Source of the DNA: a virus
Lineage: Duplodnaviria; Heunggongvirae; Uroviricota; Caudoviricetes
Strand: one strand, 5' to 3'
Virus record (IMG/VR): IMGVR_UViG_2541047926_000006
Length of the DNA: 28,819 nt
How positions within the stretch are numbered: position 1 is the stretch's first letter; each line of letters starts with the position of its first letter. Made by a program: the position numbers and the translations under genes. The notes below the pieces were generated by a model. It was not told where the DNA came from. It did not search any database and saw only the letters and a list, made by a program, of their open reading frames with translations. Below, in pieces: positions 1-27,180 of the stretch.

Positions 1-1284
1 TTACAGACTTCTGGAAGGTTGCGCAGCTCTTACAACACGCGGTTGATCTTCCGCGGCGTCTTCCAGCGCACTTAAATCACGGTCTTTCACTTCTGGCATT
101 TTCAGCGCAGAGATTAAACCAATCACTGAATATGCCATGATCATAATGGCGATCGGATACCAGGATTCCGTCATGGTGCAGAAAATACCCGCCAGGATAG
201 GACCAAAACCGGAAGCGATAAGACCACCAATTTCTTTAGAAATAGCCATCCGGGTAAAGCGGTTTTTACAGCCGAACATTTCTGCCATGGTAATATTTTC
301 CAGAGCAAATAATCCCAGCACCGCACAGTTATGAATCACAATCAGTGCAACCATAATGGTGCTCGGGGCATAGCTTTTATCTACGATGATAGAAAGCATT
401 GGCCATGCCAGCACAATCGCGGAGGTATTCATAATAATATACGGGATCCGGCGACCAATTTTATCGGATAACCAACCAAGGAACGGAATGGTCATAAAGC
501 CGAGAATCGAACTGATCATCAATGCATCTGTTGGAATTGCTTTGTTAAACAATAACGTCTGCACTAAATAGCCCGCAAGGAAAGTCTGAATTAAACCTGA
601 GTTACCCGCCTGACCAAAACGCAGCCCTGTTGCCAGCCAGAAGGATTTGCTCTGGAACATGCTACCAGCAGGTGCAGGTTTTGCTGTCGGTTGGTTGCTG
701 TCGTTAACCTTCTCAAAAACCGGGCTTTCTTTCAGATTCATACGCAACCAGATAGCAAAGACCATCACGACAACGCTCGCCAGGAACGGTATACGCCATC
801 CCCACGCCAGCAGTTCCTCTTTACTGAGAATGAAGAACATAAAGGCCCAGATTGCCGTTGCGCTTAAAGTTCCGCAGTTAGTTCCCATAGCCACAAATGA
901 GGAGATAATTCCGCGCTTACCTTTTGGCGCATATTCCGCCAGCATCGTACCGGCACCGGAAATTTCCGCACCTGCACCCAATCCCTGAATAATACGCAGC
1001 GTCACCAGCAAGATGGGGGCAAAAACACCAATCTGTGCATAGGTCGGTAACACACCAATTAAGGTGGTACAGATCCCCATCATGGTGATGGTAATAAAGA
1101 GCACTTTTTTACGCCCTATTCTGTCGCCCATTTTGCCGAAAATAAATGCTCCGACAATACGCGCCACATAACCTGCACCGTAGGTTCCCATTGCCAGAAT
1201 TAACGCCATTGCCGTTGATGATTCAGGAAAAAATATTTCATGAAACACTAACGCTGCGCCGAGCGAATATAACTGGAAATCCAT
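1..1284 (-). CDS. ydfJ: MFS-family transporter YdfJ, apparently N-terminally truncated at the prophage junction
   Basis: 427-aa ORF with multiple hydrophobic segments and the MFS loop motif GKMGDRIGRKK only about 50 residues from the start, so TM1 is incomplete. No Shine-Dalgarno before the ATG at 1282-1284. Confidence 0.8.
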   Translation of the reverse strand: MDFQLYSLGAALVFHEIFFPESSTAMALILAMGTYGAGYVARIVGAFIFGKMGDRIGRKKVLFITITMMGICTTLIGVLPTYAQIGVFAPILLVTLRIIQGLGAGAEISGAGTMLAEYAPKGKRGIISSFVAMGTNCGTLSATAIWAFMFFILSKEELLAWGWRIPFLASVVVMVFAIWLRMNLKESPVFEKVNDSNQPTAKPAPAGSMFQSKSFWLATGLRFGQAGNSGLIQTFLAGYLVQTLLFNKAIPTDALMISSILGFMTIPFLGWLSDKIGRRIPYIIMNTSAIVLAWPMLSIIVDKSYAPSTIMVALIVIHNCAVLGLFALENITMAEMFGCKNRFTRMAISKEIGGLIASGFGPILAGIFCTMTESWYPIAIMIMAYSVIGLISALKMPEVKDRDLSALEDAAEDQPRVVRAAQPSRSL

Positions 1285-2617: not shown

Positions 2618-3208
2618 ATGTCTCGAATTTTTGCTTACTGTCGGATATCAACGCTGGATCAGACCATCGAAAATCAACGCCGGGAAATCGAAAGTGCAGG
2701 TTTTAAAATCAAACCTCAGCAAATAATCGAAGAACACATTAGCGGCTCAGCAGCAACCAGTGAGCGTCCTGGTTTTAACCGGTTGCTTGCTCGCCTGAAA
2801 TGTGGTGATCAATTGATTGTGACAAAACTGGATCGCCTTGGTTGTAATGCAATGGATATCAGGAAAACAGTGGAACAACTGACCGAAACAGGTATCAGAG
2901 TGCATTGCTTAGCATTGGGGGGCATTGACCTGACCAGTCCAACAGGAAAAATGATGATGCACGTAATTTCAGCAGTCGCTGAATTTGAACGAGACCTTTT
3001 ACTTGAACGCACTCATTCCGGGATAGTAAGAGCCCGCGGCGCAGGGAAACGTTTTGGTCGACCACCTGTGTTAAATGAAGAACAGAAACAGGTGGTATTC
3101 GAACGAATTAAGTCAGGTGTAAGTATAAGTGCCATTGCCCGGGAATTCAAAACCTCGCGGCAAACCATTTTAAGAGCCAAAGCAAAACTTCAGACACCTG
3201 ACATATAA
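2618..3208 (+). CDS. pinQ: Serine recombinase / DNA invertase (Pin/Gin/Hin family)
   Basis: 196-aa ORF with the resolvase N-terminal catalytic region (YCRISTLDQ, active-site Ser) and a C-terminal HTH. Lies next to the tail-fibre genes as in Mu gin and e14 pin. Confidence 0.9.
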
Positions 3209-3305: not shown

Positions 3306-3881
3306 CTACGGCAGTGCTGGCCATTCAATATCCTGTGCAGTTGACGTATCAACACGGTTCAGCAACACCCGATACTTTTTCCAGGCTTCCAGCAATGAGG
3401 TTTCTTCCTCCGTTGCGATTTCCAGATCTACAGCATCCTGAAGTGGCGCAATATGCTCACTGGCTACCTGCATCAGGCTGTTTTTTGTTTCTTCCGCCTC
3501 TCGGATCCGGAACAGTTTTTCTGCTTCTGCATCTTTCACCCAGGCTGTGCCGTTCCACTTCTGAAACTCCCCTTCCGGCGATAACCAGGTAACATTTTCC
3601 GGTAACGGACCGAGTTCAGAAATAAATAACGCGTCCCCTGACGCTACGTCATAAACCGTTTTACCCCGATGGTCTTCAACGAGATGCCACGATGCCTTAT
3701 CACTGTTGAAAACAGCCACAAAGCCAGCAGGAATATCTGGTGGTGCAATATCGGTACTGTTTGCTGGCAGACCTGTATGAGGCGGAATATATGCGTCACC
3801 TTCACCAATAAATTCATTAGTTCCGGCCAGCAGATTATAAATTTTTATGGTCCGTGGTTGTTCACTCATTCTGAATGCCAT
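3306..3881 (-). CDS. tfaQ: Tail fibre assembly protein
   Basis: 191-aa ORF immediately downstream of the tail-fibre ORF with a 1-nt stop/start overlap (TAATG). Sequence recognised as Tfa family. Confidence 0.85.
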
Positions 3882-5062
3882 TATGCAAGCCTCACAATAT
3901 AGTTAAATGCGATGTTTTTGACGGTGTTTTCCGCGTTACCAGCAGCGTTAACGGTGATGGTGTGTCCATGTGAACCAATCGCAACGGAGTGCGTATGAGC
4001 ACCAATACCGACAGTATGCGCGTGTGCACCTGCAGATGCTGCTGTGCCGGACAGTGAATGGCTATGATTACCATCTGTACTGGTATTCGCTAACCACCCC
4101 GTAGACATACCTACTGAGCCTTGTACACCCCAGGTATTTTGACCTGAGCTTGTATAACCATATTGATAAGTATCTTTAAAAACACTGGGGTTAAATCGAC
4201 GGCCATCTCTATGGCTGTGATTACCAGCTGCATTCGTGCTGCCACTTAAACTATGGGTATGCGCACCAGTGTTATTCGTGGATTTAGTGCCGTAATCAAA
4301 CGACGATGTGGTTTTCGTCCCCAAATCCGTACTGGATGCGCTGGCGCTGTGGGTATGCGATTTAATGCCGTCCTGTTCCTGAGACAATACGGCCCGACCA
4401 CTGGCAGGTTTGCCCTTAATCGTCCAGCCACGCATATCAGGGATCACGCCTGACGGATAAGCCGCTGCAAGTTTCGGGTATGCAGATTTGTCAAAAGCCT
4501 GCCCCTGCATCAGGGCATAGCCAGACGGAACGGTATCTGATGGCCACGGGATTGGTGCGCCAGGCGGATAAAACTGCTCTGATGGCGTATAGAGTGAATA
4601 AACTGTACCGTCCGTTAACCCTTCCGGCTTATTAGCAGAATATGCTGGTGACGTATGAATCGTCACGCTGGCATTACTGGTATAATCCCATTGAATATTT
4701 ACACCAGTCGCATAATTTCCGATTGCAACGTAAATATCGTAAGTATCACCAGATGTATTAACCCAGGCAAAATTTGTAAACCCTGTCAATGTGCGCTGCC
4801 ATAAAGCACCAGTAATCCCCTTCGGATTACCATTACCTGCACGTAAAACAAGTTCAGATATACCTGCCTGTTGAGGTGACCCCACGTTAAATCCAGCGCC
4901 ACCAATCAACGTAATTGAAACAACAGAACTCGCCTGTGGCATGGTTACCGTTGCTAATTTGAACCAACCAGCACCACCGCTGAATGACATTGTTGTTGAG
5001 TTAAGCGTACCAATATCTTTCGGCGTCAGTGTTATATCCGCTGAAAGCGCCTTACCATTCAC
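3881..5062 (-). CDS. stfQ: Side tail fibre protein, C-terminal (receptor-binding) part, with His-x-His repeats
   Basis: 393-aa ORF with repeated GAHTHS / GNHSHS / GSHGHT motifs typical of T-even and lambdoid fibre tips. In a different frame from the N-terminal Stf fragment upstream. Confidence 0.75.
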
Positions 5063-5310
5063 CTTACGGGCAGAAGGTATACGGTGATAATCCCGGCGTG
5101 TGACGGCGGGAATCCCTCCACCAACAGACTGACGCTGTACTGACCATACTCGACGTCCATTGTGTAACGCCCGGCTTCATCCGGGTTTTCTGAGGCCAGC
5201 GTGTTCACCACCACCGCGGTGCTGTTACGTTTTGCTTTCAGCTGGATTGTGCAGTTCTGTACCGGTTTTCCTGTGCCGTCTTTCAGTACACCTGAAATCT
5301 TTACTGCCAT
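5059..5310 (-). pseudogene. stfQ: Side tail fibre protein, N-terminal fragment, not in frame with the distal part
   Basis: ORF 5059..5316 translates as MNMAVKISGVLKDGTGKPVQNCTIQLKAKRNS..., matching the lambda Stf N-terminus as I recall it, then stops after about 85 aa. Its stop overlaps the ATG of the 393-aa ORF (ATGA). Confidence 0.6.
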
Positions 5311-5320
5311 ATTCACCCCA

Positions 5321-5374: not shown

Positions 5375-5974
5375 TCAGAACTTATAACCGACACCCACGA
5401 TGAAACCGTCAGTGCGCCAGTCACCGCTGCCGGAGCCTTCATAAGCGACATCAACGGCCACGGATTCGGTCGGGTTAAACTGCACGCCAGCCCCCCACGC
5501 CAGAGACGTGTTGCTGTGGCGACCGTCATCACTTCCGGTCAGCACATCGTGCGTTTTCCCCGTATTGTCGGTCACCTGCAGATAATTCCCGGAGAAAGTC
5601 GACACACGGCTGTAAGCCACACCCGCCATCGCATACGCGCTGAACCATTCATTCACGCGCACAGACGGCCCCGCCATCACGCTGAACCAGCGGTTACGCA
5701 CGGAATCTTCATACCAGCGGGTATCGCTGTAATGCGTTTTTTGCTCATCTTCAGCGTTGGCATAACTGAATGACGTAATCAGCCCCAGCGTGTCCGTAAA
5801 CTCATAACGGTATTTCACGTTAATCCCGTTCAGATTATCGCTGCCGGGAGCGTTCGTACGGGCATGAAGATACCCTGCGCTCAGTGTGGCCTGCTGCTCA
5901 GACGCCCATGCAGGCGCACCGGATACGGCCAGACAGATGGCTGCGGACAAAATGGCTGCACAAACTTTACGCAT
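5375..5974 (-). CDS. lom: Lom/Ail-family outer-membrane beta-barrel protein
   Basis: 199 aa with signal peptide [24 protein letters not shown], alternating beta-strand pattern and C-terminal GYKF. Sits between J and stf as in lambda. GAGAGG Shine-Dalgarno upstream. Confidence 0.85.
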
Positions 5975-6040: not shown

Positions 6041-7450
6041 TCAGCTGATACTGATGCCTGCGGTGGCTTTCTTCATCACCACAACCAGCAAATCGCTGAT
6101 ACTTGCTGTGGGATACCAGTCATTTACCAGCCATGCTGACACCGAAAACTCCAGCGTCATGTGGCCGTGACCAGCTGGCATATCAATAACACCACTGTAA
6201 ATCAGCGTATTATCCAGCGCGGTACGGTTATAAATTTCAGCACCATTTTTCTTCACTATCAGGCGGCATGACGAATAAATATCGTTATTCTCCCGCTCAT
6301 GTTTAGCGCCGCAGAATGCCACCGCTGGAATAACAATTTGCCTGTCAAAAGGCTGATCGTCATAAATCCTGACGGTAATGGTCCCTGATGGCCACCGCTC
6401 CGGTGCCCGGGAGTCCTGCGGGAAAGCCTTACCCACTGTTTTGACAATATCGCCTTCAATCTGATTGGCTGACAGTTTCCCCTTAATCTGACAGTTCTCA
6501 TTAATCGTGACGTTGTTGAGCGTCCCGGAGTTCGCATTCACACTGCCACTGATATCCGCATTTTTAGCAGTCAGCTTTCCGTCCGGTGTCAGGGAAAATG
6601 CCGGTGGATTTCCACCGCTGGTAATGGTGGGGGCCGTCAGATACTTCAGGAACACGTCGTTCATGAATATCTGATCGCCCTGACCAACAAACATCGGTTT
6701 TGTGTTGCCATTCGCAGGATTAACCATCGCAATCCTGTCCGCCGCCAGCAGCACCTGACTCTGCATGCCGTCAGGGGTGTTCTCAATACCGGCACCAATA
6801 CCCGCGATATAAAGGCGTCCGTCCTGCATCTGCTGCAGCTTCACAGCCCACATGCTGTTCAGGTTATTATTTGTATCAACCTGAACCTTCTGTATCTGCT
6901 GAATTGCCGCACTCTGGTCTTCCAGTTTCTTATTGACGGTCTGCGTGATTTCATTGCTGACATCCGTAATGGACGTCCTGATTTCAGCCAGGTCAGGCGC
7001 AAGCTGACCGTTATCAATCTGCGTCCACAGCTCCTGAGCCAGATGGGTTTTCCCTATCCCGTCGAGAATACTGGCAATTTCACCTGCGATCCGCGACAGC
7101 ACGAAAGTACAGAATGCGGTTTCCACCACTTCAGCGGAGTCTCTGGCATTCTTCAGTTCCTGTGCGTCGGCCTGCGCACGCGTAAGTCGATGGCGTTCGT
7201 ACTCAATAGTCCCTGGCTGGAGATCTGCCTCGCTGGCCTGCCGCAGTTCTTCAACCTCCCGGCGCAGCTTTTCGTTCTCAATTTCAGCATCCCTTTCGGC
7301 ATACCATTTTATAACGGCGGCAGAGTCATAAAGCACCTCATTACCCTTGCCACCGCCTCGCAGAACGGGCATTCCCTGTTCCTGCCAGTTCTGAATGGTA
7401 CGGATACTCGCACCGAAAATGTCAGCCAGCTGCTTTTTGTTGACTTCCAT
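6041..7450 (-). CDS. nohA: Chimeric ORF: terminase small subunit Nu1 N-terminus fused in frame to a tail-tip protein J C-terminal region
   Basis: First ~130 aa ([78 protein letters not shown]...) match lambda Nu1 as I recall it. The remainder (…[30 protein letters not shown]…[14 protein letters not shown]…) resembles the lambda J C-terminal domain. One continuous 469-aa frame. Confidence 0.85.
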
Positions 7451-7459
7451 TGTTCATTC

Positions 7460-7660
7460 CACGGCCAAAAACAGAGAAAGGAAACGACAGAGGCCAAAAA
7501 GCTCGCTTTCAGCACCTGTCGTTTCCTTTCTTTTCAGGGGGTATTTTAAATAAAAACATTAAGTTACGACGAAGAAGAACGGAAACGCCTTAAACCGGAA
7601 AATTTTCATAAATAGCGAAAACCCGCGAGGTCGCCGCCCCGTAACCTGTCGGATCACCGG
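7460..7660 (-). other. Lambda-type cos site: cosN 12-nt cohesive-end sequence at 7628..7639, cosB (Nu1-binding repeats) between cosN and Nu1, cosQ side at 7640..7660
   Basis: The minus strand reads ...CCGACAGGTTACG GGGCGGCGACCT CGCGGGTTTTCGCTATTTATGAAAATTTTCCGGTTTAAGGCGTTTCCG..., which I recognise as the joined lambda right and left ends. Inverted GGAAACGACAG repeats near 7480 and 7526. Confidence 0.85.
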
Positions 7661-7838
7661 AAAGGACCCGTAAAGTGATAATGATTATCATCTACATATC
7701 ACAACGTGCGTGGAGGCCATCAAACCACGTCAAATAATCAATTATGACGCAGGTATCGTATTAATTGATCTGCATCAACTTAACGTAAAAACAACTTCAG
7801 ACAATACAAATCAGCGACACTGAATACAGGGCAACCTC

Positions 7839-8033
7839 ATGTCAACGAAGAACAGAACCCGCAGAACAACAACCCGCAACATCCGCTTTCCTAACCAAAT
7901 GATTGAACAAATTAACATCGCTCTTGATCAAAAAGGGTCCGGGAATTTCTCAGCCTGGGTCATTGAAGCCTGCCGCCGGAGACTAACGTCAGAAAAGAGA
8001 GCATATACATCAATCCAGAGTGATGATGGATGA
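7839..8033 (+). CDS. ynfO: Small basic protein YnfO, possible ribbon-helix-helix fold
   Basis: 64-aa ORF MSTKNRTRRTTTRNIRFPNQMIEQINIALDQKGSGNFSAWVIEACRRRL.... The flanking DNA matches what I recall as the lambda right end. Confidence 0.7.
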   Translation: MSTKNRTRRTTTRNIRFPNQMIEQINIALDQKGSGNFSAWVIEACRRRLTSEKRAYTSIQSDDG

Positions 8034-8283
8034 ACATCCCGGTTTCTTTACCTTCCCTCCCTCCCCGCACAGAACTGGCGAGCGTGAGGGACCAATATGT
8101 GAGCCATAAATGCCTTATCTTCAGAAATGCAGTTGGTATCCGAACAGGACGATATTGTAAATTCACCTAAATACGAGGCATTGCTGTAGTTGAATTGCAG
8201 TACTGTATTAGCCTGACAGTGACAGAATACGATATTGACTCTGTCACTTGTGAAATGGTCAGAATGGTTAGCAGTTATGGTGA

Positions 8284-8490
8284 TCAGTCAACCAACAGGG
8301 AATAATCCTTCGTATTCTTATCGTGCTTTACTAACGCGGCCTCAATTGCCCTGAATGCTTCCAGAGATACTTGATGTTCTATACATGCAATTACAACATC
8401 CGGGTAACCCATCGAAATGGTGCTATTAAGCATAGTTTTTACACGAACCTGCTCCTGGGAGGGGGCATCAATGTATTGATCTTTATGCAT
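8284..8490 (-). CDS. ydfO: Hypothetical small protein at the position of ydfO
   Basis: 68-aa ORF with GGAG about 9 nt upstream of the ATG and an in-frame stop 8 codons further upstream. Symbol assigned only by position between ynfO and gnsB; not confirmed by sequence. Confidence 0.45.
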
Positions 8491-8785
8491 TTTGTCGCTC
8501 CATTCGTTTGCTCTTCACTTGCGGCTAAAAATATAACGTCAAATCACTCAGCATGAAAGAGTGAAAGTTTCAGCGCGTTTCCCTTACATAATCTGTCGTT
8601 TGTATTCTCTTCAGGCATACCGGAAAGACTAGGTATTGTCACACAACCAATACCATCGACAATCGAGATTTATATCTATTCGGTAATGTTTAAATATAAC
8701 AAAACCCCGTAAAAACGAGGTTTATGGGTAATTTGTATTGTTGAATAGCATCTGATGAGAAATTGATGCTAATACTATAAACATG

Positions 8786-8959
8786 CTAGATTAAATCAAT
8801 CTTGATATCATAGCTTTCAAGACCAGTCATTTTTTCCCGTGCAGTAAACTGGATACTGGTAACTTCTTTCCCGGTCTTTTTCTTAAGCTCAATGATTTTT
8901 TTTGTTATATATTCAGAAATATCTGCTTCTGTTTTTGTTTTTAACTCTTCAATGTTCAT
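8786..8959 (-). CDS. gnsB: GnsA/GnsB-family protein
   Basis: 57-aa product MNIEELKTKTEADISEYITKKIIELKKKTGKEVTSIQFTAREKMTGLESYDIKIDLI. Start chosen at the ATG after AAGAGGAA, not the 88-aa maximal ORF. Confidence 0.85.
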   Translation of the reverse strand: MNIEELKTKTEADISEYITKKIIELKKKTGKEVTSIQFTAREKMTGLESYDIKIDLI

Positions 8960-9131
8960 CATTTCCTCTTTTAGTCTGTTATGACTGTCCTGGTACACAG
9001 TAGTGTCAATTATATGGAGCAAACGTATAAAAGATAAGATGAAACATCGCAATAATCAACATACGACGGTCTAAATTTCACACAAACAGATAAAAATGAT
9101 TATCATTTATTATCAATGCATTAGAATCAAA

Positions 9132-9287
9132 TCAATTCAAGAGTCTCATTGCTGCTTCCAGAATTTCTTCTGAAGTTACATGTCGATCCGCTGCTACATA
9201 AATGACTTTATGATCTCCGGTCAGAGATGGAAACCCTGCAGCCATTACAGTGAGGTGTGTTGTTTCGCCATTTGGATATTCACGCAT
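9132..9287 (-). CDS. ynfN: Cold-shock-induced small protein YnfN
   Basis: 51-aa product MREYPNGETTHLTVMAAGFPSLTGDHKVIYVAADRHVTSEEILEAAMRLLN with GGAG upstream. The maximal ORF extends to 9401; the true start is uncertain. Confidence 0.6.
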   Translation of the reverse strand: MREYPNGETTHLTVMAAGFPSLTGDHKVIYVAADRHVTSEEILEAAMRLLN

Positions 9288-9403
9288 GATGGTGTTAACT
9301 CCGGTCATCACTGGCACTACCATTGCTGGTTCAGAGTTAAAAAAAACTATTATTTTTTTCATAATGTTACCGTAATATGTGAGTATCCATCGACTAGACA
9401 CTA

Positions 9404-9428
9404 AGCAAAAAAGCTCCCGAAGGAGCCT
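9404..9428 (-). terminator. Hairpin plus T-run between cspI and ynfN (putative cspI terminator)
   Basis: Minus-strand GCTCC TTCG GGAGC stem-loop followed by TTTTTTG. Confidence 0.5.
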
Positions 9429-9633
9429 TCATTTTCACTTTCTTAAATCTAACGACAGATGGCTAACATTTAAGTATTGTGAAATATTATCAAATGTAAT
9501 CATCATTGATTTACAAAAGATACATTTTGCCCCGAAAGGATTTCTGTCAGAAACATCAAAAGATGATGTTCTATACTGAGAACCATGGCAACACGGGCAT
9601 CTAAAGTGAATATGGTTTGTAATATTTTCTACC

Positions 9634-9846
9634 TCAAAGTGCCACTACATGAACAGCTGCAGGGCCTTTAGGTCCGTTCTCAATACCAAATTCGACTTCC
9701 TGATTCTCAGTTAACGTTTTGAAATCGTTGCTCTGAATAGCTGAGAAATGCACAAACACATCTTTGCTACCATCTTTCGGCGTGATGAAACCAAAACCTT
9801 TTTCAGGGTTAAACCATTTCACTAAACCAGTCATTTTGTTAGACAT
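9634..9846 (-). CDS. cspI: Cold-shock protein CspI (CspA family)
   Basis: 70 aa, [38 protein letters not shown]..., with RNP1/RNP2 motifs. AAGG Shine-Dalgarno. Confidence 0.9.
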
Positions 9847-10209
9847 CATTATTACCTTTTGAAGAAGTTAGCCCTTGGGCAGAATGGTCCGAAAAAAAAT
9901 ATCAGAGAGAAAAACCAACAAGGAAATCTCAAGAGGTACAAAGAATAAAATTATAACAATGACTGCTTCAGATAATTTTGTAACAAACCAGAACACCATT
10001 AACGCATGATTAACCAACCATAGCAAGGATTACTTTTGTAAAGAAAAACACACGAATGAAACAATAGCTTTATTTATTAATAAAACGTGTCATTCTGTCT
10101 AATGACCTTTTATCTTACCCTTAAGATTTCAAGGATTTTGACTCATGGAAGAGTCCTTTTTATTTAAATTTCACATTCAGCGCTAAAAATAATCCGATTT
10201 AATATTAAT

Positions 10210-12803: not shown

Positions 12804-13083
12804 AGATTGTGGTGCTTTTTGTGGGAGTCATCCACTTACGCACTTTGTTTTGCCATGCCAGCAGTTAGCTTCTGCTGTAAAACTATTCATGCAGCAAACC
12901 TGCACTTCACCACAATGGTTAGCATACTTTTCCTGATTAAGATTTTGCCAAATATGCTAGCCATTGTTTCATGTATTGGACCTCCTTACTTTTTATTAAA
13001 GAGATCCAATATTCACTACTCTGTCCGTATCTCTACTCAGGCATCAGCCTTCTTCGTTATCGTATACAGACGAGCGATGAATT

Positions 13084-13299
13084 TTAATCAGTAATGATGA
13101 CATTTGCTGCTGCAGGACCTTTAGCACCACTCTCTATAGAGAAGGTAACCTTTTGACCTTCAAATAAGGTTCGATAATTATCATTCTGAATCGCAGAAAA
13201 ATGCACAAACACATCTTTACTACCATCAACAGGAGAAATAAAGCCGAAACCTTTATCAGCGTTAAACCATTTTACTAAACCAGTCATTTTATTTGACAT
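13084..13299 (-). CDS. cspB: Cold-shock protein CspB (CspA family)
   Basis: 71 aa, [71 protein letters not shown]. Confidence 0.92.
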
Positions 13300-13599
13300 T
13301 CTACATTCCTTAACTTGAGCCTTTCGGCATAAATGGTTTGCATAACAGAAACGACTTCGTACTTAATTGGAGAGACTCAAAGAAGGAATAAGTGAATAAC
13401 ACCTGAAATGAGAACTGCTTTAGTAAACTACTTCGTATATCGTCTGTTCTTCAAACCGACGCAATCATTAACGCATAGTTGAACATATGAAGCAATGTTT
13501 ATTTTAGACATCCAGCCATCTTCAACCCCATCAAAAAACTATAGCTTTCTTCAGGAACGTGTGTATAGTGCGCCAAGTTATCAGTATTAAGGAATTTTT

Positions 13600-14233: not shown

Positions 14234-14740
14234 TTATCTCGTCACCTTCCTCAATTGCGCTTCCGCGTATGCTTCTTCCTGCCAGCACTTTGTTACCAGT
14301 TTACCAATGACGTCCGCATACCCCTTATACCACTGATAATCGGTCAGGTCTGGTACCAGCTTCTGGACATGACGTCGTGCCAGCGTGGTCGGTAAACGAC
14401 TAAACCGGTTTCCATTACAACGCCCACAAATCTTATATACCGGTACGCCATGAAACCGGGTTCTTTTTTCATCCAGAACAATCCCTTTACCCTTACACCC
14501 TCTGCACGCTGTGCTGGCTTCGCCCTTACCATGGCAATGCTGACATAGTTCCTTCACCCATTCTTCCTTGATTACAGATTCCCCGCGTCTGTAGTGTTTC
14601 ACCACTTCGCGCAATACATTATAAAATCCCGTACCTGAACAATGCTCACAGCGAGCCTTACTTGCCGCAGACCTGGAGTAATCAGCAAAGGCAAAACTCA
14701 CGAGGTAAGGAATAATCTGTAACCGGATTTCTTCACTCAA
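14234..14740 (-). CDS. quuQ: Q-like late antiterminator, distal part, with four DnaJ-type CxxCxGxG zinc-finger repeats
   Basis: 168-aa ORF whose only in-frame start is TTG at 14738-14740. Motifs CEHCSGTG, CQHCHGKG, CRGCKGKG, CGRCNGNR. Lies upstream of the lysis cassette as a Q gene should. Confidence 0.7.
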   Translation of the reverse strand: MSEEIRLQIIPYLVSFAFADYSRSAASKARCEHCSGTGFYNVLREVVKHYRRGESVIKEEWVKELCQHCHGKGEASTACRGCKGKGIVLDEKRTRFHGVPVYKICGRCNGNRFSRLPTTLARRHVQKLVPDLTDYQWYKGYADVIGKLVTKCWQEEAYAEAQLRKVTR

Positions 14741-14985
14741 TTGTTCAATGTCGGGTTATCCAGTGCCATCGCGTAATTTAGCAGGCCTTCAATCGCAAAC
14801 TGAGGGTCCTGAACACCAACTTTTGCCAGAAATAAGGCCAACCCAAGTGGTGCTTTCGACTGCACCATCCCCTGCGCTGCCATTACATCCGTAATTGTTA
14901 AACAACCGGTGCCTGTCGCTGGAGCGTCATCGCTCAATTTTGGAGATTTTGGGGAGTAATATTTTGGTAAGGCTTCAAGGTTCAT
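14737..14985 (-). CDS. quuQ: Q-like antiterminator, proximal part (82 aa), 1 nt out of frame with the distal part
   Basis: ATG at 14985 with GGAG 7 nt upstream (MNLEALPKYY...). Its stop (14737-14739) overlaps the TTG of the next ORF. The 752-nt span plus one base would give a single 250-aa frame. Confidence 0.55.
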   Translation of the reverse strand: MNLEALPKYYSPKSPKLSDDAPATGTGCLTITDVMAAQGMVQSKAPLGLALFLAKVGVQDPQFAIEGLLNYAMALDNPTLNN

Positions 14986-14998
14986 GCTCGTTCTCCAC

Positions 14999-16048
14999 TT
15001 ACGCCAGTACGCCAATTGCCAGCGCGCGATCGATAAAACGAAATATCAGCTCCAGTTGGGAGCCATACTTATCTTCAAATGCCACTGTATCCGTATGCAG
15101 CTCGTTGTGATGCTTTCTGCACAAAGGCAACACAAAGAGATCATGTGCTTTTGTTCCCATTCCGCCCTGCCCGTGACCAATCAGATGATGCGGATCGTCG
15201 GCTGGCATACCGCAGCAAGCACACGGCTGTGTCTTAACCCAACGTGTGTATTTCTCCTTAACCCAGCGGCGACGTTTAGGCAGCTTCATGAAAGATTCCG
15301 GAGACTCTGGATCAACGGTGATGCTTACCACCGTCTTTTCCTGTGGTGATTTTTGTTGCTGGTGGGCGTAAGGCAACGGTGCAAGATTTTTTGTGCGTTG
15401 TTTCAATATGCTGGTGGCGGTCTGCTCTCCCGGTACGATGTCGCTTTCGCGGTACACCGAGCAGATTTTTTCCGCTGGTAATCCCAGCGAACGACGCGAT
15501 ACAGCCTCAGGTAGTGCATCCACCACCTGATTGCAGACCGCCCACCAGGATAATTCAGCCAAAGATAATTCCCGCTCCTGCGTACCGCTTATTGCGTGAC
15601 GGATGACGTCAATCACCCATGCTGTCAGATTTTGTTGAGCAAGCAGCTCCAGTGATTCCGATGTCTGGTCACGCAGTTGGTTGTCGCAGTGCCAGCACAA
15701 CACCATTGCGCCGGTACCATAACGGTGAATGACTGTTTCAGTGTGATGGTAATCGCCATTAGGCCGCTGGCAGGATGTAACATGACGTAATAGCCAGTCG
15801 GACAATGCGCCAACGCCGCCAGCAGCACGAATCACCCGTTCGTTACTAAAAAACGGCAGCAATGTTTTGTCTTCCGCCAGCGGCTGGCGAACGGCAGGAA
15901 CGACTCCGGATGGCAGATTACGCATGCTTTTTGGTTCCGGTTCCACCAGCACTCGAGGATTATGAAATATCTGTATGGATTCACGGCCCGGCTTAAGGAC
16001 CACCAGCCCAAGCTCAGGCACCAGAACAGGTCTAAGTAATACCCGCAC
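14999..16048 (-). CDS. ydfU: DUF968-type protein with a C-terminal Cys/His-rich putative HNH-like motif
   Basis: Start chosen at GTG 16046-16048, directly preceded by GGAGG, giving 349 aa. C-terminal CACCGMPADDPHHLIGHG...CRKHHNELH. The maximal ORF extends to 16087. Confidence 0.8.
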   Translation of the reverse strand: MRVLLRPVLVPELGLVVLKPGRESIQIFHNPRVLVEPEPKSMRNLPSGVVPAVRQPLAEDKTLLPFFSNERVIRAAGGVGALSDWLLRHVTSCQRPNGDYHHTETVIHRYGTGAMVLCWHCDNQLRDQTSESLELLAQQNLTAWVIDVIRHAISGTQERELSLAELSWWAVCNQVVDALPEAVSRRSLGLPAEKICSVYRESDIVPGEQTATSILKQRTKNLAPLPYAHQQQKSPQEKTVVSITVDPESPESFMKLPKRRRWVKEKYTRWVKTQPCACCGMPADDPHHLIGHGQGGMGTKAHDLFVLPLCRKHHNELHTDTVAFEDKYGSQLELIFRFIDRALAIGVLA

Positions 16049-18917: not shown

Positions 18918-20257
18918 TCAATCTATTTTATCGGGATCAGGCTTCTTTTTAGGTAACTTCGGGGGCTTAACTTGCTGATGACTTTGCGTTCGGCGCGTAA
19001 GCCAGGGATGGTCAGCTTTAGATTTAACATAGTATTTTGAGCGTAAATCAATACGGGCATTATCCACTCGTTCATGGACACTCTTTTCATCATCCAGTGG
19101 TATAGGCTCCGGGCCATCAACATACTTTTCCCAGCCCAGCGCTTTCCCGTCATACAGAACGTTAATTTCACCGTCAAAGTTCTCACATACAGTAACAACC
19201 GAATGCCTAAGTCGATATCCCCGGCCCTCACTGCGTACCTGAAACGCACTGCTTTTGTACTGGAAAGTGAGATTTTTAGACAGAACGCGCTTCGCCTGTA
19301 GGCTGAAGATATAACCCAGTTCCTCTTCAGAATGGTGCACATCAAGATGAGCATTATCAGTAGTACGAGGCGACGTAGCGAACCGGTTGTTATAGGCTTC
19401 AATAAAGGTCGGCAACCATGCATTTGCTGTTTCAATATCACTGATATTCTGAAGCCGCATTTCTTTGACCAGCCTGTCCTGTAGTGTCTGATTGGCGCGC
19501 TCTACCCGCCCTTTTGCCTGCGGGCTGTTGGCATGGATTGGCTCGATGCCCAGTGTCTTTATCGCACGAGTGAACTGGGTCAGCTCACCTTCCCGCTCTG
19601 GGTTATTTACCCTGAATATACTGTGTCTATCAGAGTAGAGAGCGAGCGGTACGCCATGATCATTAAGGTAACCCCGGAGGGTTTCCATGTAAGCCCGGGT
19701 TGTTTCAGCAGGCACAAAACGCAACGCCATCAACGCACTGGTGGCATCATCAATGAAAACGATCAGTGTACATCTGTGGCCTCGATTTTCAAACCAGTCA
19801 TGAGGTGAGCCATCAATCTGGATCAGTTCACCGTAAGATGGTCGTCGCATGCGGCGTTGATATATACGGGCAATTTTACGACGGCGTTCACGCCATAACC
19901 CCTCTTCTATCATCCACTTTCTGAGAGTTTCAACGGATAAAGATAAACCGTGTATCTCGCGCAATTTTTCGCACGCAAACGTAGGTCCAAAATCAGCGTA
20001 ACGGCCTTTGAGGAGTGAAATTACTGTGCTCTGAATTCAGTAGAAAAGGAATTATTAGGACGCTTTCCACGTCGGTGGGAAACCAGACCAGAAGGCCCTT
20101 CATTTCTATACCGTTGCACCAGACGTTTAACCTGCCGAATAGAAATGCCAATGCGTGCCGCAGCTTGTTCCTGAGTAATATGTCGATTAATTGACTCCTG
20201 AATAATCTGAAGTCGGTGGAGTTCCTTATGACTCATCGTAACAGTCTCTTTGATCAT
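18918..20257 (-). pseudogene. DDE (rve-superfamily) integrase/transposase, split into an N-terminal HTH ORF and a catalytic ORF in a different frame
   Basis: 78-aa HTH ORF (20021..20257, ...ISIRQVKRLVQRYRNEG...) and 348-aa ORF (18918..19964) with D...D...E spacing (IQIDGS, YSDRHS, KGRVER). The frames differ by 1 nt and no A6G-type slippery site was seen. Confidence 0.65.
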
Positions 20258-20750: not shown

Positions 20751-21716
20751 TTATCCCCTGAAACCAGGCGGAATTTCTGTATCCGGTTCAGAAATATGAT
20801 TCACACAACGCTGTACAGGTGAACGTCCCAGGCGGATGACCAGTTCGTCCCATTTTTCGCGGAGTTTTGACGGGCTCATGATGTTTTTTACCCAGAATTG
20901 ATCTCGCTGTACCCGACCAAACATTTCGCAAATTTGTCTGTGGCTTCTGCCATCCAGCATCCGCATTGTGCGCACGTCATTGGCCCAGGCTGTCCAGTTA
21001 GGCTCTTTTGGTCGCATGATCTCTCCATCGTCGCTGGCAGCCTGTTCGTAAAGGTTCACGATCCGCCCCCAAATCCACTGCGCACACGCCAAATCCTCCC
21101 TGCTACCCCACTGGCGTTTTTTCGCACTAAACACAACCGCGTCGGGGTTCCGGGTTAAAAAATCCTGTTCAGCGGTCTGCGGGTCCGGTTGCGAAGCTTC
21201 CGGACGAAAAGTGTTTTTATTCTCTGTAGTAATCTCTGTTGTATTCTCTGTAAGATCATCAGGCCATTTTGACCCGATGACATTGGGTCGTTTTGAACCA
21301 ATGGAGCGTTTCATTTTGACCTCTTCCATCGTGTCATTTTGACCTGATGGAGCGGCGCATTTTAAACCGATGGATTCGCTCAATTTGCCACCATCTAAAA
21401 GCTCGCTCCCGTAGTTGATCGTGTAGAAATTGGTCATATCGCGCTTTGATTTATTGAGCTTTTCACAACGCAAAAGCCCCAGCGTTTTCAGACTTGCAAA
21501 CGCGCGCTTTAACGTTGACTCTGACCAGAATGGGAACTGTTCCAGCCATTGTTCCGTTGTGTTGTAAATCCAGCGAACACCATCACATTCCATGCCGGAA
21601 TTGGTATCTCTCAACCAGTAATGCAACTGCTGCAACACAATGGCTTCATTTAAGCCAATCTTCATCGCAAGCTGTGTGTTTATAACCAGTGGGCGTTCAG
21701 CAAAAAGAAGGCTCAT
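20751..21716 (-). CDS. Phage replication initiation / replisome-organiser-like protein
   Basis: Winged-helix-like N-terminal region (…LNEAIVLQQLHYWLRD…), acidic linker and conserved C-terminus. Start uncertain: the maximal ORF starts at TTG 21770; ATG 21716 was chosen. Confidence 0.6.
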   Translation of the reverse strand: MSLLFAERPLVINTQLAMKIGLNEAIVLQQLHYWLRDTNSGMECDGVRWIYNTTEQWLEQFPFWSESTLKRAFASLKTLGLLRCEKLNKSKRDMTNFYTINYGSELLDGGKLSESIGLKCAAPSGQNDTMEEVKMKRSIGSKRPNVIGSKWPDDLTENTTEITTENKNTFRPEASQPDPQTAEQDFLTRNPDAVVFSAKKRQWGSREDLACAQWIWGRIVNLYEQAASDDGEIMRPKEPNWTAWANDVRTMRMLDGRSHRQICEMFGRVQRDQFWVKNIMSPSKLREKWDELVIRLGRSPVQRCVNHISEPDTEIPPGFRG

Positions 21717-22218
21717 AATTCCATCCAGCTTTTTGTTGGTATTGCTGTCGATACGCAAGTTTGAAAGCAATTGCTTTTTCTATAAGTTCGTCAGTTTCAC
21801 GATCCACTACGGCAGGATCAGCAAAAAGCAGTCCGGACTCCACCACATCGCCATATTCTTTGTTTAACCCGGCGATCATGTACGTGATGCTTTTTCCGTC
21901 ACTAATTTCACGATACAACCTGAAATCATTAATCCGAATAGCCTCCATAATTGCAGGCACTAGCGCCGTGAACTTTTCACGCTTATCCCTGGTGTCGATA
22001 GCCTTCCAGCGTTCGAATATCTTCACTCGATTAACGCCAAGTGCTCGCTGATCAACCGCGCCACCTTCATCTGTGACACGCTGAACATCGATGTTCGGGC
22101 GCTCTTTCAAAGCCCAGAATGCTTCAGTGATTAATATCGTCGCCTGCTCCTGTGTCATTCCTGGTCGACATATCCAGGCATCCAGAGCCTCACGAGCCTG
22201 TTCAGGAGTGATTTTCAT
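21697..22218 (-). CDS. Hypothetical early regulatory protein downstream of dicC (possibly CII-like, CP76 type)
   Basis: 173-aa ORF overlapping the dicC 3' end by 17 nt. Family assignment is a guess from position and size. Confidence 0.45.
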   Translation of the reverse strand: MKITPEQAREALDAWICRPGMTQEQATILITEAFWALKERPNIDVQRVTDEGGAVDQRALGVNRVKIFERWKAIDTRDKREKFTALVPAIMEAIRINDFRLYREISDGKSITYMIAGLNKEYGDVVESGLLFADPAVVDRETDELIEKAIAFKLAYRQQYQQKAGWNYEPSFC

Positions 22219-24081: not shown

Positions 24082-24134
24082 TTTCTGGTGACGTTTGGCG
24101 GTATCAGTTTTACTCCGTGACTGCTCTGCCGCCC
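24082..24134 (+). ncRNA. dicF: DicF small RNA (Hfq-dependent; represses ftsZ translation)
   Basis: TTTCTGGTGACGTTTGGCGGTATCAGTTTTACTCCGTGACTGCTCTGCCGCCC followed by TTTTT, matching the DicF sequence as I recall it, including its intrinsic terminator. Confidence 0.9.
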
Positions 24135-24945: not shown

Positions 24946-27180
24946 ATGCAGGAAAACCGCTGGGATGAGGAGTCTGCTTCTTTTGTCCCGGTTGAGACTG
25001 AATCCGATCCGATGAACGTCACTTTTGACAAGCTGGCCCCTGAAGTACAGAACGCTGTCATGGTTAAGTTCGACACATGTGAAAACATCACCGTTGATAT
25101 GGTTATTAGCGCACAGGAATTGTTGCAGGAAGACATGGCAACATTCGACGGACATATCGTTGAAGCGTTGATGAAAATGCCAGAAGTTAACGCCATGTAT
25201 CCGGAGCTTAAGTTGCACGCCATTGGGTGGGTTAAGCATAAATGTATTCCTGGTGCTAAATGGCCCGAAATTCAGGCAGAGATGCGCATCTGGAAAAAAC
25301 GTCGCGAAGGTGAACGCAAGGAAACCGGAAAATACACGTCTGTTGTTGATCTCGCCCGCGCCAGAGCCAATCAACAGTACACTGAAAATTCAACAGGAAA
25401 AATCAGCCCGGTCATTGCTGCCATTCATCGCGAATACAAGCAGACATGGAAAACACTGGATGACGAACTGGCCTACGCTCTCTGGCCTGGTGATGTGGAT
25501 GCCGGAAACATTGACGGCAGCATCCATCGCTGGGCAAAAAAAGAAGTTATCGACAACGACCGCGAAGACTGGAAGCGTATCTCGGCATCAATGCGCAAAC
25601 AGCCTGATGCCCTTCGCTACGACCGCCAAACTATTTTTGGCCTTGTCCGTGAGCGTCCGATCGACATTCACAAAGATCCCGTAGCACTGAACAAATATAT
25701 CTGCGAATACCTGACGACAAAGGGCGTGTTTGAGAATGAAGAAACAGACCTGGGCACTGTTGATGTTCTCCAGTCATCAGAAACACAAACTGATGCAGTG
25801 GAAACTGAGGTATCTGATATCCCAAAAAATGAAACCGCGCCGGAAGCTGAACCATCTGTAGAGCGTGAGGGGCCGTTCTATTTCCTCTTCGCAGATAAGG
25901 ACGGAGAAAAATACGGTCGCGCAAACAAACTTTCTGGTCTGGATAAGGCACTGGCTGCTGGCGCCACTGAAATCACAAAAGAAGAATATTTTGCCCGAAA
26001 AAATGGCACATACACGGGCTTACCGCAAAATGTAGATACCGCTGAAGATTCAGAACAACCAGAGCCGATAAAAGTTACCGCTGACGAAGTAAACAAAATT
26101 ATGCAGGCAGCCAATATCAGCCAGCCTGACGCCGATAAGTTGCTTGCTGCATCACGTGGTGAATTTGTTGAAGGGATTAGTGACCCGAATGATCCGAAAT
26201 GGGTTAAGGGGATCCAGACCCGCGATTCTGTGAACCAGAACCAGCATGAATCGGAACGGAACTACCAAAAAGCGGAACAAAACAGTCCAAATGCGTTACA
26301 AAACGAGCCAGAAACGAAACAGCCTGAACCAGTGGCGCAACAGGAAGTGGAAAAAGCCTGCACCGCCTGCGGTCAGACCGGCGGCGGCAACTGCCCTGAT
26401 TGTGGCGCGGTGATGGGCGACGCAACATACCAAGAAACATTCGATGAAGAGTATCAGGTTGAAGTTCAGGAAGATGATCCGGAGGAAATGGAAGGCGCTG
26501 AACATCCACACAAGGAGAACACTGGCGGCAATCAGCATCACAATAGCGATAATGAAACTGGCGAGACGGCAGATCACCCAATTAAGGTGAACGGTCATCA
26601 CGAAATCACATCCACCAGCAGGACGTGTGACCATCTAATGATCGACCTTGAAACCATGGGAAAAAATCCTGATGCCCCGATCATCTCAATAGGTGCAATA
26701 TTTTTCGATCCGCAAACCGGAGATATGGGACCGGAATTTAGTAAGACTATCGATCTGGAAACTGCTGGCGGAGTCATTGATCGGGACACCATTAAATGGT
26801 GGCTTAAGCAATCACGCGAAGCGCAATCTGCCATTATGACCGATGAAATCCCGTTAGATGATGCACTGTTACAATTGCGGGAATTTATCGACGAAAACTC
26901 CGGTGAATTTTTTGTTCAGGTTTGGGGAAATGGAGCCAACTTCGACAACACGATTTTGCGCCGTTCATACGAACGGCAGGGGATCCCCTGCCCGTGGCGT
27001 TACTACAACGATCGCGATGTACGCACAATCGTTGAGCTGGGGAAAGCCATAGACTTCGATGCCAGAACGGCTATTCCATTCGAAGGTGAGCGCCATAATG
27101 CACTTGATGACGCCCGTTACCAGGCAAAATACGTTTCAGTTATCTGGCAAAAACTGATCCCGAGTCAGGCTGATTCTTAA
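24946..27180 (+). CDS. ydfE: Large prophage protein with an internal zinc ribbon and a C-terminal DEDDh 3'-5' exonuclease domain (intact form of the ydfE locus)
   Basis: 744-aa ORF. Exo motifs MIDLETMG (D,E), GNGANFDNTIL (D), ERHNALDDARYQAKY (H-x4-D). Zinc ribbon CTACGQTGGGNCPDCG. Acidic low-complexity linker. Start codon uncertain. Confidence 0.75.
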   Translation: MQENRWDEESASFVPVETESDPMNVTFDKLAPEVQNAVMVKFDTCENITVDMVISAQELLQEDMATFDGHIVEALMKMPEVNAMYPELKLHAIGWVKHKCIPGAKWPEIQAEMRIWKKRREGERKETGKYTSVVDLARARANQQYTENSTGKISPVIAAIHREYKQTWKTLDDELAYALWPGDVDAGNIDGSIHRWAKKEVIDNDREDWKRISASMRKQPDALRYDRQTIFGLVRERPIDIHKDPVALNKYICEYLTTKGVFENEETDLGTVDVLQSSETQTDAVETEVSDIPKNETAPEAEPSVEREGPFYFLFADKDGEKYGRANKLSGLDKALAAGATEITKEEYFARKNGTYTGLPQNVDTAEDSEQPEPIKVTADEVNKIMQAANISQPDADKLLAASRGEFVEGISDPNDPKWVKGIQTRDSVNQNQHESERNYQKAEQNSPNALQNEPETKQPEPVAQQEVEKACTACGQTGGGNCPDCGAVMGDATYQETFDEEYQVEVQEDDPEEMEGAEHPHKENTGGNQHHNSDNETGETADHPIKVNGHHEITSTSRTCDHLMIDLETMGKNPDAPIISIGAIFFDPQTGDMGPEFSKTIDLETAGGVIDRDTIKWWLKQSREAQSAIMTDEIPLDDALLQLREFIDENSGEFFVQVWGNGANFDNTILRRSYERQGIPCPWRYYNDRDVRTIVELGKAIDFDARTAIPFEGERHNALDDARYQAKYVSVIWQKLIPSQADS

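Follow-up and report, generated by a model that had tools for sequence, protein, structure and literature searches.

Does a cos site that survives in a defective prophage remain a usable packaging signal, and would a terminase supplied by another phage mobilize the DNA beside it? The question is raised by a 28,819-nucleotide stretch of viral DNA (IMG/VR record IMGVR_UViG_2541047926_000006, Caudoviricetes), the whole of which we refer to as the window. The initial annotation, made from the letters of this DNA, had recognized an intact lambda-type cos on the minus strand of a prophage devoid of head and terminase large-subunit genes, and had proposed that a superinfecting lambdoid phage with a compatible terminase could cleave there and mobilize the element like a cosmid. 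Our analysis confirmed the site itself and leads us to regard it, with considerable confidence, as an intact cos leftover of the Qin family which has no autonomous activity and at which a terminase acting in trans would promote recombination and abortive packaging, not cosmid-like transfer.

The 12-nt cohesive-end sequence GGGCGGCGACCT has a single exact match in the window, on the minus strand at the position originally annotated; when up to one mismatch was allowed, shuffled sequence gave a mean of 0.06 matches. BLAST against the lambda genome (NC_001416) placed this match within a long homology. Window positions 7639..7058 correspond to lambda bp 1..583 with 99.0% identity, and 7640..8048, which directly abuts 7639, corresponds to lambda 48094..48502 with 97.6% identity, as expected if, as had been suggested, one flank derives from the lambda right end. 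Read on the minus strand, 7058..8048 is the circularized lambda end-join, 98–99% identical to lambda.

We took the definitions of the cos sub-sites from papers of the Feiss laboratory and placed each sub-site by exact match (Table 1). In these definitions, cosN comprises the 12 bp plus 2 bp per side, and R3 spans bp 50–65 with critical base pairs at 56, 58 and 59 (PMC9026076); I2 spans bp 18–50 and the I1 segment bp 65–90 (PMC4856287); within cosB the sub-sites run R3-I1-R2-R1, R2 being inverted, and the 7-bp cosQ is described as a highly conserved element (PMC4669245). The window carries cosB in this order with the spacings of lambda, and cosQ, cosN, I2, R3, R2 and R1 are base-for-base those of lambda, including the three critical base pairs of R3. 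An independent repeat search paired R1 with R3 in direct orientation and showed R2 to be inverted with respect to each. The 42-nt stretch from cosQ to cosN is wholly identical to lambda, as are all 61 of the 61 positions of lambda 48442-48502 and 72 of the 72 positions of bp 1-72, without indels; I2 is the wild-type I2+ sequence GTTTTCGCTATTTATGAAAATTTTCCGGTTTAA given in PMC4856287. The repeats lead into a TerS (Nu1) gene whose recognition helix matches that of lambda. The alignment of 7451..7700 to lambda cos that had been proposed as a check thus revealed neither a mismatch in cosN nor the loss of any R-site repeat.

Base-by-base alignment of 7440..7720 with the annotated cos of phage DE3 revealed that three of 280 nt are substituted, at lambda bp 73 (A>G; window 7567), bp 102 (T>C; window 7538) and bp 175 (T>G; window 7465). 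All three lie outside the R sites, and only bp 73 falls in a named segment, I1. From the WATCAANNNNTTR consensus we infer a 13-bp IHF core at 7554..7566 (bp 74–86), which would leave bp 73 outside the core. The extra G in the R2-R1 spacer of NC_001416 is absent from the window, from DE3 and from most other phages. Window positions 7463..7700 correspond to the lambda 48442-178 insert that is enough to let plasmid pOER1 be packaged as a cosmid (PMC4856287), and the interval to which attention had first been drawn, 7451..7700, matches this insert almost exactly.

Table 1. Features of the window, listed by position; strand and coordinates are given where assigned.
Feature	Coordinates	Strand	Description
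ydfJ'	1..1284		truncated
ynfT, ydfK			between ydfJ' and pinQ
pinQ	2618..3208		invertase gene
tfaQ			follows pinQ
IS009	3340..3538	-	inside tfaQ; Rfam, above gathering score
stf	3881..5316	-	side tail fibre gene, split and internally deleted: 85-aa N-terminal ORF (5059..5316) and 393-aa ORF (3881..5062)
lom	5375..5974		
nu1'-'J fusion	6041..7450	-	in-frame ORF, 469 aa, start ATG at 7450; Pfam, BLAST and junction alignment
R1	7475..7490	-	accessory TerS binding site; exact match
R2	7516..7531	-	TerS binding site, inverted relative to R3 and R1; exact match
I1 segment	7550..7574	-	lambda bp ~66-90, following R3 (to bp 65); contains the IHF site and an intrinsic bend; carries bp 73 A>G (7567)
R3	7575..7590	-	lambda bp 50-65; critical TerS (Nu1) binding site; exact match
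I2	7590..7622	-	lambda bp 18-50; spacer/bend segment; identical to lambda
cosN	7626..7641	-	12-nt GGGCGGCGACCT (7628..7639) plus 2 bp beyond each nick site; flanks identical to lambda
Lambda-like right end	7640..8048	-	
cosQ	7663..7669	-	GGGTCCT, packaging-termination element; exact match at the lambda-equivalent position, which we take to be 48473-48479
DUF3950 ORF	7839..8033	+	Pfam; within the lambda right-end homologue
gnsB, ynfN, cspI, rzpQ, rrrQ, essQ, cspB, cspF			in this order beyond the right end
cspA-type 5'-UTR thermoregulator	9588..9993	-	upstream of cspI; Rfam, above gathering score
cspA-type 5'-UTR thermoregulator	13068..13460	-	upstream of cspB; Rfam, above gathering score
Q	14234..15015	-	ydfT/quuQ homologue; frameshifted
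ydfU, rem, hokD, relEB, ydfV, flxA			in this order after Q
ISNCY remnant	18918..19964	-	transposase remnant
Ren-like gene			Ren-like/DUF977, beside the O-like gene
O-like initiator gene	20751..21770		
YdaT/CII-like gene			
dicC, dicA			
DicF sRNA	24083..24134	+	Rfam, above gathering score
dicB			
Large exonuclease	24946..27180	+	744 aa
xis, int			

The element that carries this site is a Qin-family defective lambdoid prophage inserted in ydfJ. Besides the insertion site, we found pinQ, tfaQ, cspI, cspB and cspF, relBE-hokD, dicA, dicC, dicB and DicF, in the order of the annotated Qin loci. Qin inserts at the 5' end of ydfJ and is present in 48% of 638 Escherichia and Shigella genomes, where it measures 11 to 97 kb (PMC6379469). 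Over 17.45 kb, the draft E. coli scaffold GCA_000461015.1 matches the window at 100% identity, and the structure of the window recurs on at least nine public contigs. The search of complete E. coli genomes for a colinear match gave a coverage of the window of 91% at most; the lineage is known from draft or metagenome contigs only. Identity to lambda is 98–99% within approximately 1 kb centred on cos, and outside it the window is either 78–81% identical (81% at 8139..8656) or unrelated. This drop on either side of the cos segment suggests a recent cos-centred exchange with a lambda-like phage.

Several further features of the prophage were recorded. Q is a pseudogene: relative to the intact 250-aa gene of the relative PCP06021, a 1-bp deletion near 14741 has left ORFs of 92 and 168 aa. 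The stf genes of relatives are 2.8–3.8 kb long, and the split stf of the window adjoins the pinQ invertase gene. Between flxA/ydfW and the replication-like module is the transposase remnant, which gave a weak rve_3 Pfam match; a relative has the corresponding gene labelled “ISNCY family transposase”. The exonuclease ORF corresponds to PHROG positions 80–822 of 823, and relatives encode 823 aa; its shorter product may reflect either an N-terminal truncation or a different start.

The initial reading that head and terminase large-subunit genes are missing holds for the window. Searches by tblastn with lambda A, W, B, C, D, E, FI, FII, Z, U, V, G, H, M, L, K and I found no match in the window. 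Instead, Pfam resolved the ORF next to cos into Phage_Nu1 (residues 1–133), Phage_Tail_Tip (182–310) and Ig_GpJ_C (339–469) domains. Residues 1–131 of Nu1 are 100% identical to lambda, including recognition helix residues 17–24, and are followed in frame by 338 residues from the C-terminus of a J-type tail tip protein. At the deletion junction, 7056..7058, there is a 3-bp GAT microhomology common to both parental sequences. An illegitimate deletion at this microhomology brought together nu1 codon 131 and the final 338 codons of J, and took out terminase A, all head genes and tail genes Z through I (lambda A through I). Because the deletion ends approximately 400 bp short of cosB, cosQ-cosN-I2-R3-I1-R2-R1 survive with the lambda sequence. 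The C-terminal 30–40 residues of TerS are needed for binding TerL (PMC9026076), and the TerS fragment encoded by the element is without this C-terminal TerL-binding domain.

The exact nu1'-'J protein is present on at least nine public contigs, and the contigs with this ORF are 99.9–100% identical over 8–17 kb, which points to clonal descent and not to selection. In other Qin variants nu1 is truncated at codon 44 (19SZHZ713Rt), at codon ~174 (K-12) or not at all, and the relative PCP06021 retains nohA through V. The different codons at which nu1 is cut across Qin variants are consistent with independent random decay. A scan of 7300–8300 for promoters and terminators found nothing above shuffle expectation.

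With no TerL, a TerS fragment that lacks the TerL-binding domain, and a frameshifted Q, the site is inert unless terminase is supplied in trans. A terminase of lambda specificity acting in trans could very probably cleave the window cos, judging from the identity of its sub-sites. In the lambda pathway, TerS and IHF bind R3-I1-R2 and TerL nicks cosN; terminase then stays on the cosB end (Complex I) and moves that end into the prohead, and the cosQ-side end is exposed to nucleases (PMC9026076, PMC4856287, PMC4669245). By the same route, TerS and IHF would assemble on the window cosB, and TerL would nick cosN at 7628..7639. Translocation would proceed from 7639 toward decreasing coordinates, through nu1'-'J, lom, stf, tfa, pinQ and ydfK, and would exit the prophage after approximately 6.3 kb into ydfJ, ydfI, ydfZ, rspR, ydfG, dcp and beyond. 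Approximately 21 kb of the prophage, with its lysis, Q, immunity and int genes, would be left on the unpackaged cosQ side, and the unprotected end on that side would become a recombinogenic double-strand break.

Completion of packaging requires a second cosQ plus cosN (PMC4669245, PMC6687093); otherwise packaging remains unfinished (PMC4856287, PMC6687093). Using a 42-nt cosQ-cosN pattern and permitting up to 8 mismatches, we searched the window, approximately 10 kb of additional flank from this lineage and, along the direction of packaging, 50 kb of K-12 backbone; no second cosQ-cosN was found. Unless one lies within range (38–52 kb downstream), packaging could not terminate and would be expected to yield abortive particles. 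A single cos combined with outward packaging thus argues for gene exchange with lambdoid phages around cos and against cosmid-like transfer. Of the original proposal, recognition by a compatible terminase in trans is to be expected, all sub-sites being those of lambda; mobilization like a cosmid is not, given the single cos, the outward direction and the length of the element. The choice of phage 21 as a helper also fails, because its cosB specificity differs: a lambda-specific terminase does not package DNA with the 21 cosB, nor a 21-specific one DNA with the lambda cosB. Lambda cos is, on the other hand, packaged by N15 terminase (PMC4669245).

We considered it improbable that a helper terminase would productively package the element and/or the adjacent chromosome, whether as a cosmid or by lateral transduction. 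The cos is intact, Int, Xis and the O-like initiator are still encoded, and passive chromosomal prophages between two cos sites have been packaged by a helper at ~2 phage per cell (PMC4669245). Several lambda-type cos sites per genome are also common in E. coli. With a 250-bp query, a lambda-type cos was found in 4593 of 5426 complete E. coli genomes (~85%); the median genome has it at 2 places, and no genome at more than 8. In 3261 of the 5426, a cos-nu1-A stretch is covered to at least 80%, and these genomes thereby encode a potential resident helper terminase. Productive packaging is conceivable in a strain with a second cos 38–52 kb downstream or with a resident helper prophage. However, a cosmid-like unit consists of two cos in the same orientation approximately 38–52 kb apart, or of a replicating unit of that size, and we found one cos in the window and its lineage flanks. 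The excised element would be ~27.6 kb, a length that depends on a 10-bp putative att core, AAATCCATAA, found in a relative; this is 57% of lambda, and a dimer would be 114%. The lambda head accepts roughly 75–105% of the genome length, so the monomer would be too short and the dimer too long. In addition, there is no P/DnaC-type helicase loader gene beside the O-like gene, and cos phages, which need a second cos, are stated to carry out neither generalized nor lateral transduction (PMC6687093, PMC12829572).

Equally doubtful is the more far-reaching idea that an orphan chromosomal cos serves as a fixed entry point for lambda-type terminases, giving directional transfer or recombination of the ydfJ-dcp-mar-lsr arm as a cos-phage analogue of lateral transduction. 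For this, either one-ended particles would have to be trimmed into infectious ones, or packaging would have to terminate at another prophage cos in a polylysogen. If true, it would challenge the view that cos phages are without lateral transduction. The window does not fall in the lateral transduction class as presently defined, because its signal is of the cos type and not a headful (pac) signal.

Less probable still is that the site looks intact and is dead, because productive terminase assembly is blocked by its chromosomal surroundings or by the non-lambda bases at bp 73, 102 and 175. Of these bases, bp 73 does lie within the I1 segment of published definition (PMC4856287). In contrast, cosN, I2, R3, R2, R1 and all spacings are unchanged, and the variant alleles occur in viable phages. 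Among five phages aligned for comparison, PhiR34_1, recorded with MG1655 as its host, has all three, and each is also found singly in other isolated phages (Kati, ev099, lambda h434 imm21 and an Stx1 phage). The bp 73 G allele is shared by Kati, ev099, PhiR34_1, Stx1_112808, K-12 Qin and K-12 DLP12. The title of Bear et al. 1984 (cited in PMC4669245) describes IHF as merely accessory for lambda packaging. No phage in the collection searched matched the window cosB at 100% over 156 nt.

Least probable of all is that the Nu1(1–131)-J' fusion, with or without cos DNA, is a host decoy which titrates or poisons lambda-type TerS in the manner of PICI Rpp proteins, which interfere by dimerizing with the TerS DNA-binding domain (PMC6739421): the fusion does keep a DNA-binding domain identical to that of lambda, together with most of the central oligomerization region, without the TerL-binding domain (domain map in PMC9026076), and the ORF is preserved exactly on its nine or more contigs, but that preservation points to clonal descent, the truncations of nu1 elsewhere in Qin look like random decay, and expression would require late transcription, yet Q is frameshifted and 7300–8300 holds no promoter-like site.

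Selection for the retention of cos was also considered, on the ground that it survives each of four or five independent Qin deletions, and was found to be unsupported. The deletable morphogenesis block measures approximately 18 kb, as against approximately 1.3 kb for cos and its flank, and the proposal is further weakened by a Qin variant, in E. coli NT1F25, that is without the lambda 12-mer. At 8500..9540, NT1F25 carries a different, non-Nu1 terminase remnant; this difference indicates that packaging modules have been swapped within the Qin family. A separate variant was seen in GCA_013066175.1, a contig otherwise near-identical to the window, where a T>G change at ~9785 (window 7666, lambda 48476) converts cosQ from GGGTCCT to GGGGCCT. 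This change would be expected to impair termination and not initiation.

We compared the locus with known systems. The Qin cos/nohA of K-12 MG1655 (NC_000913, about 1,636,5xx) shares with the window the ydfJ site and, among other genes, pinQ, tfaQ, gnsB, ynfN, cspI, rzpQ and rrrQ, as well as cosQ-cosN-cosB, all three non-lambda alleles (73G, 102C, 175G) and a truncated nu1 (nohA). The two differ in that K-12 Qin keeps Nu1 to about residue 174, fused toward stfQ, whereas the window stops at residue 131, fused to J'; next to its R3 core K-12 Qin also carries G54A, and ynfO-ydfO lie upstream of its cos, where the window has an unaltered R3 and a lambda-like right end. The DLP12 cos/nohD of K-12 likewise belongs to a defective lambdoid prophage with an intact lambda-type cos between lysis genes and a Nu1 homologue. 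It differs in its locus (argU), in its deletion (nohD intact, aaaD a fragment), in C53T in R3 and in changes adjacent to cosQ. De Paepe et al. observed that DLP12 recombines with infecting lambda across the cos homology, and attributed the 10 of 19 junctions beside cos to terminase-made breaks (PMC3945230).

The R sites, their spacings and the orientation toward nu1 are the same in the cos of phage lambda, although that of the window is chromosomal, with a truncated nu1, no A gene, no second cos and three substitutions outside the R sites. Cos-type PICIs, such as EcCICFT073, which hijack the terminase of lambda or phi80, resemble the window in being chromosomal, in having no TerL of their own, in their lambda-like cosQ and cosN, and in a possible dependence on a helper. 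However, PICIs have a divergent cosB which is read by an Rpp-TerS heterodimer, and they are induced by the helper, excised and replicated (PMC6739421, PMC9026076). By the criterion of cosB divergence (PMC6739421), membership in this class was rejected, because the cosB of the window is identical to that of lambda; we noticed no Rpp-type gene, and the genes present are those of a lambdoid prophage in decay.

Helper packaging of passive prophages and the formation of lambda “doc” particles resemble what is predicted here, in that a chromosomal cos is used in situ, by terminase in trans, and in one direction from cosB. A single cos would be expected to yield only defective, one-ended particles, as Sternberg and Weisberg reportedly described in 1975. 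In the papers searched, docL particles, lambda-qin111 and nohA-cos appeared in reference lists only. Productive helper packaging needs cos-to-cos dilysogen structures (PMC4669245).

These comparisons identify the site as an ordinary, well-known cos relic of the Qin family and as already known biology; the novelty implied at the outset does not hold, for K-12 MG1655 carries the same cos in both its own Qin and its DLP12 prophage. The role of such a cos as a recombination hot spot with infecting lambda has likewise been described for DLP12. For annotation, the cos is useful as a boundary marker of the packaging module in a Qin variant and as a means of dating the nu1'-'J deletion. More broadly, defective prophages are a source of ready-made cos modules, which lambdoid phages may acquire by recombination.
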